Source of the DNA: an uncultured Acidobacteriota bacterium
Lineage (GTDB): Bacteria; Acidobacteriota; UBA6911
Assembly (NCBI GenBank): GCA_964474425.1
Contig: CAYYTC010000002.1
Coordinates: 39,859-103,858, forward strand
Direction of reading: 5' to 3'
DNA: 64,000 nt
Positions 2,224-7,385 of this stretch are shown piece after piece (position 1 is the first letter of the stretch; each line of letters starts with the position of its first letter). Made by a program: the position numbers and the translations under genes. The notes beneath the pieces were generated by a model, which was given only the letters and a program-made list of their open reading frames with translations, made no database searches and was not told where the DNA came from.

Positions 2224-2561
2224 GATGCACGCCCACTATGCCCAATGTGTCGTAATGGCTGGCAACCTAAGCTCTGTTATGTCCATTTCGAACATCCTCA
2301 GCTTGGAATGCTGCCCGAATGCCTGGAAAAATCCCCGGTTTAATACCGTGAAACTTGAGGATTAGGGCGCATGCTTTACCTGATGTCGCGGATATCGAGG
2401 AGCTGGAAAAATTCCGAAGCCATTTGCAGAATCCGAATATCCTTCTGAACCTGATTTATGGATCAGATCATTAGTCTATTACCAACCTGAACAGCAATCA
2501 ACATTGGCAATAAGAACGGTAATTCAACAATCCTCGGCGAAGGCAGGAAATGCCGGTGCAT

Positions 2562-3533
2562 TTACTTGCGGAGTTGCCGGAGCACCTCTTTGGCGCGGGG
2601 AGCCATCGGGCTCTCCGGATTTTCTTTCAGGTAAGTTTCAAGCTCCAAAATAGCCTTGGAAGTCTCTCCCGCATTGTTATAGAGATCCGCGAGCAGAAGC
2701 CGGATCCTGGAAGGGACATTCTTGCGTTCCAGTGCCAGCCTGCCCATGGCGATGCCTTTCTCCCATTGACGCATCTTGCCGTAGCACATGCCCAGTTCAA
2801 AGGGCCACTGCCAGCTTTCCGGGTCCTCCCGGAACGGTTTGAGCAACAGTTTCTCCGCTTCTTCGTAATGTTGCTGGAAGATCAAAAGCTCAGAGAGCGG
2901 GTAATAGGGGTCAAAGAACCCGGGATTGATTTCGATAGCTCTGCGCAGCGATGCCTCCCCATCCAGGGCTTTGCCCATTTTGAGGTAGGCCATTCCAAGC
3001 ATGTAATGCGCTTCGTAGTAATTCGGAAAAGCATCGATGGCTTTCCGGAAATGGCCGATGCCTCCCTGGAGATCATTCCCGGCACCCATCAGGTCCAGGC
3101 CGGCTTTGAACTCCCTGCGGGCCGCCTCCGGGATGCCCAGGAGGCGTGCCGATATCACTCCGCCGGGCGGGGCATCTTTGACCGGAACTCTCTGCATGCG
3201 CACCCAGATTGTCGGAGCTTCCATGGACAAGCGGTTGAGGTCGACCGATTCCTCGTACGGTTGGTATCCGTTTTTGGTTGCGCGCAGCAGAAACAGGCTC
3301 TGTTCGATGCGCCGAAACTCCACGCTGCCGGCGCTGTTCGTAAAAGCCATTTGCGCGATCGTGTCCGGGAAGATAACGATCTCAACCCGGACCTGTTCCA
3401 GCGCGGATCCTGTGTCCTGGTCCGAGATGCGAACGATCAGGTCCTGCGCACACGCGATGCCGGAAAAACCCAGCAGTGCATACCAGAAAGCTGCGGCGCG
3501 GAGGATATTCATGGGCATCAGGCCGGTTCTCAA
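2562..3533 (-). CDS. secreted TPR-repeat protein with an N-terminal beta-sandwich (carboxypeptidase-regulatory-like) segment
   Basis: Signal peptide ...AFWYALLGFSGIACAQD. TPR-like repeats are visible (AHYMLGMAYLKMGKALDGEASLRRAIEINP; ELGMCYGKMRQWEKGIAMGRLALE). Confidence 0.8.
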   Translation of the reverse strand: MRTGLMPMNILRAAAFWYALLGFSGIACAQDLIVRISDQDTGSALEQVRVEIVIFPDTIAQMAFTNSAGSVEFRRIEQSLFLLRATKNGYQPYEESVDLNRLSMEAPTIWVRMQRVPVKDAPPGGVISARLLGIPEAARREFKAGLDLMGAGNDLQGGIGHFRKAIDAFPNYYEAHYMLGMAYLKMGKALDGEASLRRAIEINPGFFDPYYPLSELLIFQQHYEEAEKLLLKPFREDPESWQWPFELGMCYGKMRQWEKGIAMGRLALERKNVPSRIRLLLADLYNNAGETSKAILELETYLKENPESPMAPRAKEVLRQLRK

Positions 3534-3918
3534 TATGCGGTAACGATTACAGGAAGCTCCTGTATGTTTCCCTGGTCCGCAAAGCGGCTATTACTTGTAT
3601 CATATGTCCCGATCCAGCTTCCCGTCAAGGCAGCCCGGAGAGCATCTGCGACGGGCACCGGTCGTGATGGAACAGGCGAAACGTGGCTTCATTCGCCACA
3701 AATATCATTGAAGCTTTTTGAATCGCGGAAAGTCAATTTCGAGGTCCCTCTGCGGGCCGGCTTTACCGGCGTTTCCGGGCATGCGTGCACGCTGCAATTC
3801 AGGCTTGGGACAACAAGCGGACATCCAATGAGCGCGATCCTGATGCCGCATCGACCGCGCGTCAACCGGCGCACCCAAAAGACAAGGGGTCGGCAACTCC
3901 TTGCGAACGGACAGCCTC

Positions 3919-5253
3919 CTACAACTGCTTCAACAGTTGCTGGGCAGCGATGTGAATCGGATCCCATGCCGGGCTGAACGGAGGCGCGTAGGCAAAATCC
4001 AGATAGGCGATCTCGTCAAGCCGCATACCGGTCCAGAGGGCGCAGGAAAGGGTATTGATTCTTTCCACGGCGCCTCTTGCGCCGACAGCCTGGGCTCCCA
4101 GGAGCGTCCCTGTCGCCCGGTCGGCCACCATTTTGATGCCCAGCCTTTTTTCCCCGGGAAGCGAACGGGCGATCGAATCTCCCCAGATAATCGTGCTGAC
4201 GGGGTGGTATCCGCTTTCCTTCGCTTCGCGTTCATCAATGCCGACTGCAGCCACTCCGAGGTCGAATATCCTGAAGGACTGGGCGCCCACGACTCCGGGG
4301 AATATCATGGAACCGCCCCCTATATTGACTCCCGCCACGCGTCCCTGTTTATTGGCGACATCTCCGAGGGGGATGTGCGTCCATTGTCTGCTCACGCGAT
4401 GGTACACCTCGCAGCAGTCTCCTACCGCATATATGTTTTCATCCGAAGTTTCCTGGGAAAAATTGACCAGGATTGCTCCGGATTTGCCGATTCGCAGGCC
4501 GGCGTCGACTGCCAGCTTGGCGTTCGGCCTAATTCCGATGGCAATCAGAACCAGGTCGGCCTCCATGAAACCGTTGTTTGTGTTCAGGCGAAGACGGTAG
4601 TCCTTCCCTGCCTCAATCGATGACAGGCCCGTATTTGGAGAAAAGCCCACCTCATGGCGGGCCATCTCTTCATGGATCATTTTTGAAAACTCGGGATCCC
4701 ATCGTGTCGCGGGGCGCTCAGCGAGATCCAGGACTTCCGTGGCGACATTCAGGCCTTTCAATGCCTCGCACATCTCAAGCCCGATGAAACCGGCGCCGAC
4801 GATCAGCGCCTTCCTGCATTGTTTTTCCCGCAAATAGCTCTTGATGGCGATGGCATCGGGAAGCGTTTTGAGCACAAAAACGCCTTCCATTCCCACGCCG
4901 GGAGCGTTCGGCACAAATGCGGTGGTTCCCGTCCCCATCACCAGTATGTCGTATGGGAGCGTCGTTCCGTCCGACAGCCGCACGGCCTTTTTGTCCCGGT
5001 CCAACTTATCAGCCCGGACGTCCAGCCGCACGTCCACTCCCGTTTCCCTGAATTTTTCAGGCGTCCTTGCGATAAGGCTTTTAGAATCCTTTATTACATC
5101 CCCGATGTAATAGGGCATGGGTCAAGCCGCGGTGGATACATTTTTCCCCTGCTCTATCATTATTACGGAAAGTGCCGGGTCGCGCCGTTTTGCTTCAGCC
5201 GCAACCGAAGCCCCGCCGGCGCCGCCTCCGATGATGACAAGATTTCTGTTCAT
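3919..5253 (-). CDS. pyridine nucleotide-disulfide oxidoreductase of the CoA-disulfide reductase/NADH oxidase type, predicted selenoprotein (UGA at codon 44)
   Basis: The ORF track gives only 3919-5118. Extending the same frame through TGA 5122-5124 reaches ATG 5251-5253 (AGGAGG 5 nt upstream) and adds MNRNLVIIGGGAGGASVAAEAKRRDPALSVIMIEQGKNVSTAA, which contains the GxGxxG FAD fold. The TGA sits in STAA-U-PMPYYIG, aligned to the family motif SFANC(A/G)LPY(V/Y)IG. The C-terminus YAPPFSPAWDPI is typical of the family. Confidence 0.8.
5092..5112 (-). promoter_or_regulatory. SECIS-like hairpin 9 nt downstream of the in-frame UGA
   Basis: The minus strand reads UAUUACAUC-GGG-GAUGUAAUA, a perfect 9-bp stem with a G-rich apical loop. 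It begins 9 nt after UGA 5122-5124. Confidence 0.6.
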
Positions 5254-5840
5254 GGCAGCCTCCTGGTTTGCGGATCATCAAGTAATTCCATGATAACAGT
5301 CCTACCCCTCCGGCTTGCAGGGGATCAGTCACCGGCGCAGGCTGTTGACGCATCCATTGCCGGCGGCCCTCAGCGTTTTTGTCGGCGCATTTCAGCGCTT
5401 GCCGGGCCGATGGTCCCAAATAGCGATTATGACAGGAAAACGCCCCGACGCGCAATGCAAGCAGACGTTTGCCTGATACCTCAGGACGCCTTATGATAAA
5501 AACCAGCGGTTCGCCGCCCAATATCTTTCCTTCATCCACCAATGTGACTTCCCTGCACCGTCCGGCCAAAAAGTTTGCCAGACCGCAAGCCGTTACGAGT
5601 TTTGATGAATGAGGCATCCTGTGCAACACTGATTGCGTTTTGAAGCATTCATTATCTTATGGCTATATCCAGGTCCCGATTCTTTATGGAAAGCGGGCAG
5701 AATTCCCTCGATAAAGGACATCCTATTTGCACGTCTGTGTAAGCCCTGCAAAAAATTGAACGTCGCTATATTATATTTTTCTGTTACACTTAAGGTTTTA
5801 AAGGCCGGCATGTCGGCAGGAGCGTTACCAGGCGGCGACT

Positions 5841-7385
5841 ATGACCTTTATGCAGAGGATCGTGGATTTCTTCACGCGGAAATCCACCGTTTCAAAAGGC
5901 GGCGGCGAGCAGGCCATCAGCAAACAGAAGGCCGGCGGAAAGTTGACTGCACGGGAGCGGATCGCTGCTTTGCTGGATGAAGGCTCTTTCCATGAATACG
6001 ACCTTTTTGTCGAGCACAACTGCCAGGATTTCGGCATGGACGGCAAAGAGCTTGCCGCTGACGGCGTCATAACGGGCTCGGGAACTATCGGGGGCCGCCC
6101 GATCTGCATCTATGCGCAGGATTTCACCGTGGCCGGCGGTTCCCTCGGCCTTATGCATGCCCGCAAGATCACCAAGGTGCTGGACCACGCAATCAAGATG
6201 GGTATCCCCATAATCGGCATCAACGACTCCGGGGGCGCGCGCATACAGGAAGGCGTCAACTCCCTGGCCGGCTACGGCGAGATTTTCTACCGCAATACCC
6301 TGGCTTCCGGCGTCGTACCCCAGATCTCCGTGGTCCTCGGGCCATGCGCCGGAGGTGCCGTCTATTCCCCGGCGCTGACCGATTTCGTTTTCGTCGTCAA
6401 TCAGATTTCCAAAATGTTCATCACCGGGCCGGAAGTCGTCAAAACGGTGCTCGGCGAGGAAATCTCGATGGAAGAGCTGGGCGGCGCCCGCGTCCAGGCC
6501 GAGACGGCCGGCAACGCCCACTTCTTTGCCAACAGCGAGCAGGAGTGTTTTGACCAGATTCGCAAATTGATCAGCTTCCTGCCCGACAGCAACAGGCAGA
6601 AGGCGGAGACCGTCGAGCCGAAGAAGCCCAAGCCGGCTTACAGGATAGAGCACCTGATCCCCAAAGACTCCAAGATCCCGTTCGACGTGCGCGATATTGT
6701 GCGCGCGTTGGTCGACGACTCGGAATTTTTCGAGGTTCAGGAACTGTTCGCCACCAATGCGGTTATCGGTTTCAGCCGGATCAACGGGGAAACGGTCGGC
6801 ATCATCGGCAACCAGGCAATGGTGCTCGCCGGCGTTCTGGACATCGACGCTTCGGACAAGATCGCCCGCTTCGTCCGGTTCTGCGATAGTTTCGGCATTC
6901 CTCTGGTCACCCTGGTCGATATCCCCGGCTATCTTCCGGGCTCCGACCAGGAACATAACGGCGTAATCCGCCACGGCGCCAAGGTTCTTTATGCCTATAG
7001 CGAAGCGACCGTACCCAAGATTACGGTGATTTTGCGCAAAGCTTACGGCGGCGGCTACATCGCCATGTGCTCTCTCCACCTTCGCGCCGACTTTGTCTTC
7101 GCCTGGCCGACCGCCGAAATTGCCGTGATGGGGCCCGAAGGGGCCGCAAACATCATATTCCGCAACGAAATCATGTCGGCGGAAAATCCTGAGGAAATGC
7201 GCAAGATCAAGGTCAAGGAGTACACCGACAAATTCGCCAATCCCTATGTCGCGGCTTCCAGCGGTTATGTGGATGCGGTCATCACCCCGGAAGAGACACG
7301 CGCCTATGTTGCCCATGCCCTCAAGATGGCGCGCAATAAAGGCGTATCGCTGCCGGCCAGGAAACATGGCATCCCGCCGTTCTAA
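5841..7385 (+). CDS. acyl-CoA carboxyltransferase (propionyl-CoA carboxylase beta / methylmalonyl-CoA carboxyltransferase 12S type)
   Basis: 514 aa with hallmark stretches GKLTARERIAALLDEGSF, DFTVAGGSLG, INDSGGARIQEGV and GPCAGGAVYSPALTDF. Confidence 0.9.
   Translation: MTFMQRIVDFFTRKSTVSKGGGEQAISKQKAGGKLTARERIAALLDEGSFHEYDLFVEHNCQDFGMDGKELAADGVITGSGTIGGRPICIYAQDFTVAGGSLGLMHARKITKVLDHAIKMGIPIIGINDSGGARIQEGVNSLAGYGEIFYRNTLASGVVPQISVVLGPCAGGAVYSPALTDFVFVVNQISKMFITGPEVVKTVLGEEISMEELGGARVQAETAGNAHFFANSEQECFDQIRKLISFLPDSNRQKAETVEPKKPKPAYRIEHLIPKDSKIPFDVRDIVRALVDDSEFFEVQELFATNAVIGFSRINGETVGIIGNQAMVLAGVLDIDASDKIARFVRFCDSFGIPLVTLVDIPGYLPGSDQEHNGVIRHGAKVLYAYSEATVPKITVILRKAYGGGYIAMCSLHLRADFVFAWPTAEIAVMGPEGAANIIFRNEIMSAENPEEMRKIKVKEYTDKFANPYVAASSGYVDAVITPEETRAYVAHALKMARNKGVSLPARKHGIPPF

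Follow-up and report, generated by a model that had tools for sequence, protein, structure and literature searches.

The single-cysteine (single-Cys) pyridine-nucleotide-disulfide oxidoreductases (PNDORs), among them the CoA-disulfide reductase (CoADR), Npsr, Nox and Npx enzymes, carry one redox-active Cys about 42–48 residues from the N terminus. Enzymes of this group that bind CoA tightly act as reductases of di-, per- and polysulfides, and NADH oxidase activity is known from some of them (PMC6026696, PMC7969121). Zhang et al. 2006 listed the "NADH oxidase" of Geobacter metallireducens as a selenoprotein family (PMC1794560), and the family is catalogued as 'FAD-dependent oxidoreductase (CoADR)' under COG0446/TIGR03385, with the G. 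metallireducens protein WP_011365774.1 as its representative and UGxP as its motif (PMC1794560, PMC9312934, PMC13188914). The same selenocysteine (Sec) family was also found in an Olavius symbiont and in the GOS data sets. The gene described here lies on the minus strand of a 64,000-nucleotide stretch of contig CAYYTC010000002.1 (the window), from the metagenome-assembled genome (MAG) GCA_964474425.1 of an uncultured Acidobacteriota bacterium. In all probability it is a single gene in which codon 44, a UGA, is read as Sec, giving a flavoprotein of the CoADR/Nox group.

The predicted selenoprotein is an additional member of this known family, and the original prediction was right that Sec-containing NADH-oxidase-like proteins are not new. 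The gene belongs at the family level (TIGR03385/COG0446), having the same Pfam architecture and best TIGRFAM as the catalogued UGxP family and its Sec at the same column, that of the single redox Cys; the catalogued family is likewise a prediction by computation only. The added detail is the subclade, U-x-x-P-YYIGDV, to which the gene belongs by its sequence. It reads UPMP, so it does not have the UGxP motif, and genes of the UGxP/UAxP type (L067–L086, for example L071, L075 and L085), which also have TGA at column 44, form a sister group only 35–41% identical to it. The representative WP_011365774.1 is placed in the UGxP clade by the motif column of the review and not by its own sequence.

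The UGA codon and the active-site column

Gene calling with translation table 11 yields only two open reading frames (ORFs) here, 3919..5118 on the minus strand (399 aa, beginning MPYYIGDVI) and 5122..5253 (43 aa). Reading upstream of 5118 in the same frame passes through TGA 5122–5124 and reaches an ATG at 5251–5253. The peptide gained is MNRNLVIIGGGAGGASVAAEAKRRDPALSVIMIEQGKNVSTAA-U-PMPYYIGDVIKD, where MNRNLVIIGGGAGGASVAAEAKRRDPALSVIMIEQGKNVSTAA represents the 43 sense codons before the TGA. The joined frame, 5253 to 3919, has 444 codons with the in-frame TGA at codon 44 and ends in a TAG stop at 3919–3921. The residues right after the TGA are Pro-Met-Pro-Tyr-Tyr-Ile-Gly, the frame is then open to the TAG, and the 444 codons hold no frameshift or stop besides TGA 5122–5124. 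Re-reading of the sequence confirmed what the original prediction had said of this anatomy, namely that the 399-aa ORF lacks the FAD fold and extends through the TGA to the upstream ATG, that AGGAGG stands 5 nt from that ATG, and that a perfect 9-bp hairpin with a GGG loop begins 9 nt past the UGA. The coordinates are collected in Table 1.

Standard ORF calling misses the gene, as had been claimed, and the same truncation is widespread. A collection of 5.8 billion proteins was searched, and of the 120 cluster representatives nearest to the product, 89 start exactly at MPYYIGDV, the Met at which the window gene is cut, and the other 31 are full length with Cys.

Protein searches were made with the 444-aa product with U written as C. 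Pfam matches cover Pyr_redox_2 (residues 4–293, E 1e-54), Pyr_redox (148–219) and Pyr_redox_dim (329–430), and the top NCBIfam models, matching residues 5–437, are those of CoADR (TIGR03385, 380.1 bits; NF007123, 372.8 bits). Among solved structures the closest matches are 6RUZ, whose deposited name is 'NADH oxidase' (E 2e-89), the Npsr of A. fulgidus (6PFZ, 9e-86) and the CoADR of P. horikoshii (5L1N, 2e-77). Homology to the single-Cys CoA-dependent PNDORs as a set (6PFZ, 5L1N/4FX9, the S. aureus CoADR 1YQZ, 6RUZ and the Shewanella Npsr 3NTD) is full length, with E from 1e-53 to 1e-89. These enzymes share both GxGxxG motifs and the dimerization domain with the window protein, and their Cys42/43/48 aligns to residue 44, Sec here.

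The UGA had been proposed to sit on the redox Cys column of the family, and alignment of the joined product to the CoADR/Nox families bears this out. Column 44 is Cys in all 13 full-length homologues (58–70% identity), with no gap, in the motif AACPMPYYIG; both glycine motifs (G9–G14 and G153–G158) are also invariant in these proteins. The solved structures agree, their active-site Cys aligning to residue 44 within VSYGACGLPY (6RUZ), VSLGRCGLPYY (6PFZ) and VSHAPCGIPY (5L1N), against VSTAACPMPYY in the window protein. It is strongly supported by these matches that the product is a predicted homodimer-type FAD flavoprotein of the single-Cys CoADR/Npsr/Nox/Npx group of PNDORs.

Within this group the N-terminal stretch GGxAGGAS of the window protein is CoADR-like. 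The Nox and Npx enzymes carry a His at that stretch, which the window protein does not have. Npsr enzymes are 551–574 aa long with a C-terminal rhodanese domain, while the window protein is 444 aa; neither a rhodanese extension nor a CxxxxC motif was found in it. There is also a likeness to mammalian thioredoxin reductase (TrxR), in that both place a redox-active Sec on an FAD/NAD(P)H disulfide-oxidoreductase scaffold. In the mammalian enzyme the Sec lies in a C-terminal GCUG extension, to which an N-terminal CxxxxC disulfide passes electrons, and the eukaryotic Sec insertion sequence (SECIS) is in the 3' untranslated region. Here, in contrast, the predicted Sec takes the place of the catalytic Cys itself, near the flavin in the N-terminal part, and the putative SECIS is inside the coding sequence (CDS).

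Conservation of the TGA was followed through several sets of loci. The close set consists of the window gene, eight truncated forms (62–81% identity) and, from a second Acidobacteriota MAG, an orthologue of 92% identity. Codon 44 is TGA in all 10 of these loci (62–100% identity), and the nine that were fetched all consist of a 43-codon ORF, TGA, Pro, Met and a 399-codon ORF. Among loci from another phylum (42–80% identity), column 44 is TGA in 24 of 30 and Cys in the remaining 6, which brings the sampled orthologues with TGA at codon 44 to 34 (42–100% identity), from independent assemblies. Distant homologues (35–41% identity) have it in 20 of 20, these having been chosen for one in-frame TGA. 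In the phylum around the relative G301, a homologue (E ≤ 1e-60) is present in 260 of 401 genomes, and by our count about 59 of about 150 matches listed in that survey hold exactly one TGA.

The two sides of the TGA look alike in their evolution. In the ten close Sec-type genes, the fractions of variable sites at codon positions 1/2/3 are 0.52/0.38/0.98 for codons 2–43 and 0.54/0.37/0.97 for codons 55–444. The median pairwise ratio of nonsynonymous to synonymous rates (dN/dS) is 0.10 on either side of the TGA (42 codons before it and 390 after it). Codon-position variability and dN/dS equal to those of the rest of the gene argue that the upstream 42 codons are translated in frame; by these measures the two pieces evolve as a single frame with equal constraint. 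The original prediction would have been undermined had the upstream 43 codons been untranslated, and this comparison points the other way.

One rival explanation is a pseudogene, or a Cys-type gene into which sequencing or assembly has brought an error. The TGA is one base from TGC/TGT, and the source MAG has 4.9% estimated contamination. However, the same TGA recurs in the 34 sampled orthologues and the 20 distant relatives described above, no further stop or frameshift occurs in the 444 codons, and purifying selection is strong both before and after the TGA. Two separate bioreactor-metagenome studies supply contigs, one spanning 3919–5300 and the other 4900–5300 with the TGA, that have 0 differences from the window; since the codon is read identically in both, it is not an assembly error. 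The conserved TGA, the matching contigs and the purifying selection effectively refute this explanation.

A second possibility is that translation really stops at the UGA and that a 399-residue protein is made from Met46 alone, by independent initiation or by termination–reinitiation, with the 43-aa ORF encoding a separate peptide or being untranslated. Met46 is conserved and lies two codons past the UGA, and every gene caller yields the split. Met46 is, however, equally conserved in Cys-type homologues (CPMPYYIG), so it belongs to a family motif and is not a start signal. The 399-aa product would have neither the GxGxxG FAD fold nor the catalytic residue, and no Shine-Dalgarno sequence stands before Met46, while one precedes the ATG at 5251–5253. 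The low dN/dS of the upstream codons, equal to that of the rest of the gene, also speaks against a true stop, which would in addition leave the frozen synonymous sites of the hairpin described in the next section without a reason. This explanation is very improbable.

The putative SECIS hairpin and the Sec machinery

The hairpin starts 9 nt after the UGA, and its apical loop starts 18 nt after it. The published model of the bacterial SECIS (bSECIS) describes a small apical loop with G in the first positions, an upper stem of 4–16 bp and a loop 16–37 nt from the UGA (PMC13188914). In loop, stem and spacing the window hairpin agrees with this model, with a 3-nt loop that has G first, a stem of 8–9 bp and 18 nt from UGA to loop. 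As in the bSECIS consensus, the stem-loop is just downstream of the UGA inside the CDS. It differs from the consensus in that its loop is a minimal triloop. The SECIS of E. coli fdhF has a bulged U; none was seen in the window hairpin.

The comparative evidence for the hairpin is strong. The ten close genes have 175 degenerate codon columns at which the amino acid is invariant, and in only 8 of these is the codon itself invariant. Five of the 8 frozen codons are stem codons 48, 49, 50, 52 and 53 (TAT TAC ATC .. GAT GTA; hypergeometric P = 2.6e-7). Between them, the wobble base of Gly51 is the third loop base, and all four values (G/T/A/C) are seen there in close genes. The eight inner pairs were scored in 31 distinct sequences of the Sec type, and 248 of 248 cells hold a standard pair. 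Pair 15–31 is U-A 26 times, C-G 3 times and U-G twice, a compensatory double change with U-G intermediates, and pair 18–28 is C-G 30 times and U-A once, a second compensatory double change. The ninth, outer pair is present in only 9 of the 31 sequences, the window included. Frozen synonymous sites, universal pairing and compensatory changes together argue that the hairpin is more than chance.

Cys-type homologues provide a natural comparison. At the same peptide, 7 of 9 have no clear hairpin, their typical codons being TAC TAC ATC GGC GAT CTC. The other two keep relics. In L035 (gene 2501–3838 of its locus) there is an 8-bp stem with one G-U pair, and in L044, where D has changed to N, the 8-bp stem carries a loop of 5 nt. 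Both relics are consistent with a recent Sec-to-Cys conversion.

Contig depth gives a further line of evidence. In three metagenomes, the depth of matching contigs rises 6–40-fold over the bin 5094–5140 only. The rise occurs because contigs of other organisms match pieces within 5086–5141, mostly 5093–5127, the part that holds the TGA, the spacer and the hairpin. The depth peak is independent support for the SECIS and indicates that these communities hold many genes of such kind.

The two branches of the family differ in how the element is built. In the window subclade, U-[PESLD]-x-P, the predicted SECIS is AUUACAUC-GGN-GAUGUAAU, encoded by YYIGDV(I/V/A), and its loop lies 18 nt past the UGA. 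In the UGxP/UAxP type it is CAUCGGCA-GGGU-UGUCGAUG, encoded by YY(I/V)GRVVD, at a UGA-to-loop distance of 22 nt. This is, from the aligned genes, one Sec position in one enzyme family with two SECIS solutions.

The machinery for Sec insertion is encoded in the same genome, which is 98% complete. Profile scores are 563.5 bits for selA, 385.8 for selB and 340.4 for selD (with one in-frame TGA), all above the curated cut-offs, and the tRNA-Sec model has a 70.1-bit match to a tRNA whose anticodon is TCA and which ARAGORN names tRNA-SeC. The genome search that the original prediction had proposed thus finds selA, selB, selC and selD all present. The only selD above the cut-off (G000:C4:64414-65334; L010, TGA at locus nt 1531) is itself Sec-encoded, reading AAG-U-ASKMSP. 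A 7-bp stem with a GGC triloop begins 13 nt past its UGA, the loop lying 20 nt after the UGA; this is the same design as the putative SECIS of the oxidoreductase.

A general reassignment of TGA as a sense codon was considered and ruled out. Elsewhere TGA serves as an ordinary stop: of the window's 33 long non-overlapping ORFs, 12 end in it. In addition selA and selB, among other genes, are free of internal stops.

Another possibility is that the UGA is partly or conditionally decoded otherwise, by near-cognate read-through as Trp or Cys at low Se or by a Sec-like tRNA-Cys(UCA)/SelB* pair, which would give a mixture of Sec and Cys enzymes. The codon stands in the context UGAC, and a C in that place makes termination weak. 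Cys would be functionally acceptable at position 44, given that 30 of the 120 nearest homologues are counted as Cys-type. Against this, only one tRNA with anticodon TCA was identified in the genome; the second of the two above-cut-off matches to the tRNA-Sec model is tRNA-Ser(TGA), and the anticodons of eight sub-threshold matches were not examined. Likewise there is a single SelB above the cut-off. The next match, for which no separate search was made, is taken as EF-Tu because its 414-aa frame stands beside a 700-aa EF-G-like frame and matches only the GTPase part of SelB. Such alternative decoding is improbable.

Several observations weigh against decoding as Sec in a CoADR/Nox-type enzyme. 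The single-sequence fold is no better than that of shuffles (71-nt window, −16.6 kcal/mol, z = −0.56), although for so short a hairpin this z is uninformative and it is not counted as evidence. The isolated 21-nt hairpin, at −6.5 kcal/mol, is slightly too weak for the threshold of −7.5 kcal/mol in the published bSECIS model. No Rfam SECIS family was found in the whole window at gathering thresholds or in 5030–5160 at E ≤ 10, where there were just chance snoRNA and antisense matches. Support from RNA consists of one probable metatranscriptome run, with two 151-nt contigs that cover 3968–4263 only. On the protein side, the CoADR equivalog cut-offs are missed (578.8 bits for TIGR03385 and 458 for NF007123, and 225.3 against 394 bits for NF010037), as is that of the H2O-forming NADH oxidase NF046103 (230.2 against 600 bits). 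The literature on single-Cys PNDORs also finds sequence to be a poor predictor of function (PMC6026696).

The hairpin does lie at the position expected of a bacterial SECIS, its spacing fitting the model and its comparative support being strong; in the comparison with a SECIS model that had been suggested, loop, stem and spacing agree, the energy of the isolated hairpin falls just short and no Rfam family matches. The main interpretation, a Sec-containing CoADR/Nox-type flavoprotein, is supported: machinery is present, the aligned homologues have Cys at the column and the upstream codons evolve as coding sequence. Membership in the group holds, but the label of CoADR equivalog is not justified by the profile scores. 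With all NCBIfam equivalog cut-offs missed and function poorly predicted by sequence in this group (PMC6026696), the profile matches assign no substrate.

Proposed catalysis and evolution of the subclade

From the gene anatomy, homology, conservation and machinery described above we infer Sec insertion itself. The hairpin (8–9 bp with a GGG loop, at Y48–I54) would act as a bacterial SECIS that recruits SelB-GTP and Sec-tRNA(Sec) to the ribosome, and Sec would be put in at codon 44 instead of termination. In the enzyme, by homology, NAD(P)H would reduce FAD and FAD would reduce residue 44. A weak pointer to NADH is the Asp at which the second beta-alpha-beta unit ends (VLDLAERP). In characterized relatives the Cys at this position holds tightly bound CoA as a mixed disulfide (PMC6026696, PMC7969121). 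The oxidized Sec44 would differ from the Cys-S-S-CoA or Cys-SOH of Cys enzymes and take the form of a selenenic acid or of a selenenylsulfide, either Se-S-CoA or Se-S-protein. The reduced selenolate would then attack an S-S or O-O bond of the substrate, with CoA disulfide, a persulfide or polysulfide, and peroxide or O2 as candidates.

Directly after the FAD-binding GD motif stands Cys280, which all 169 homologues examined have without exception; most of the close ones have Cys281 as well. Among solved enzymes, a Cys after GD is shared with 6PFZ (GDCVE), while 6RUZ and 5L1N have Val. The YYPG tyrosines of the solved CoADR/Nox enzymes are replaced in the window subclade, which reads S-L/M-P-G. 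With the tyrosines lost and Cys280 after GD, the active site may have been remodelled in the subclade.

It has been considered on these grounds that the U-x-x-P-YYIGDV subclade might be a Sec-ancestral lineage, distinct from the catalogued UGxP type and with its own near-invariant SECIS, in which Sec44 would pair with Cys280 (GDCC) as a resolving thiol and form an intramolecular selenenylsulfide in place of a bond to bound CoA. This proposal draws limited support from the invariance of Cys280, the loss of YYPG, the nesting of Cys-type within Sec-type groups described below and the two relic hairpins, and it is doubtful. If true, a 'single-Cys' PNDOR would become a two-centre Se/S enzyme.

A quick maximum-likelihood tree was built from the 120 nearest homologues over the shared 399 residues and rooted at the midpoint. 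It needs at least 5–6 changes between Sec and Cys, and Cys-type groups nest inside Sec-type groups, with long stem branches of 0.25–0.37. This nesting and the hairpins that two Cys-type genes keep as relics suggest repeated replacement of Sec by Cys, a direction that depends on the midpoint root. One genome, G302, has a Cys-type copy (C189:11602-12933, 70% identity) as well as a Sec-type paralogue (C122:18304-19632, 57%, one TGA).

The gene is rare in its own phylum, which points to a patchy distribution. A homologue at E ≤ 1e-100 is present in 2 of 301 genomes, that is, in one of the 300 other genomes, where it is 42% identical; a locus search of genome contigs with a single protein query returned one locus, L022. 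This rate and that of the other phylum (260 of 401), obtained at the looser E ≤ 1e-60, are not strictly comparable. Relatives (L025, L026 and L028–L032) share a gene order of NifU, a TrxR-like flavoprotein, Lgt, the selenoprotein gene, a SpoU methylase and CutA1. The window gene stands instead between a TPR protein (2562–3533, minus strand) and a divergent carboxyltransferase (5841–7385, plus strand). The contrast between phyla and the absence of the NifU...CutA1 context in the window suggest horizontal acquisition by a few Acidobacteriota lineages.

The outcome is mainly an annotation fix and opens no new kind of system: the gene is real, mis-annotated and in a known family. In public databases it and most near relatives are held as a 43-aa fragment and a 399-aa "FAD-dependent oxidoreductase" without the FAD fold and catalytic residue. 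A family-specific rule, a TGA at the CPMPYYIG column plus the AUUACAUC-GGN-GAUGUAAU hairpin, would mend hundreds of records, and better selenoproteome counts would follow for organisms of anaerobic bioreactors, sediments and soils. Studies of Sec/Cys exchange should profit from the clean natural series that Sec forms, Cys forms and relic SECIS elements make up here.

Features of the locus and its surroundings

Table 1. Positions of features of the predicted selenoprotein gene within the window
Feature	Position	Strand	Remarks
Complete selenoprotein CDS, predicted	3919..5253	-	444 codons + TAG; full-length Pyr_redox_2, Pyr_redox, Pyr_redox_dim
Shine-Dalgarno AGGAGG	5259..5264	-	5 nt before ATG 5251-5253; orthologues have purine-rich, Shine-Dalgarno-like sequences in the same place
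FAD-binding GxGxxG, G9-G14 (GGGAGG)	5212..5229	-	Within the 43 codons lost in the table 11 ORF
UGA codon 44, predicted to be read as Sec	5122..5124	-	Redox-active Cys column of the family
Putative SECIS hairpin UAUUACAUC-GGG-GAUGUAAUA	5092..5112	-	Codons 48-54 (YYIGDVI); core 8-bp stem 5093-5111; GGG loop 5101-5103
Second GxGxxG, G153-G158 (GAGFIG), NAD(P)H domain	4780..4797	-	Motif; profile match; invariant in homologues
Cys280-Cys281 after FAD-binding GD motif	4411..4416	-	Cys280 invariant in 169/169 homologues
C-terminal dimerization domain, residues 329-430 (Pyr_redox_dim)	3964..4269	-	Pfam match
R363-S-L-P366, site of YYPG in solved enzymes	4156-4167	-	Alignment

At 5504–5518 on the minus strand, about 250 nt upstream of the gene start, there is a terminator-like hairpin with a T-run after it. 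Its presence there suggests that the selenoprotein gene has its own promoter; no convincing match to a sigma-70 promoter was found on the minus strand between this hairpin and the start codon. On the other side of the gene, a plus-strand ORF of 475 aa at 2550–3977 has no Pfam match. It runs antisense to the TPR-repeat gene (323 aa), which matches many TPR families, and is probably spurious.

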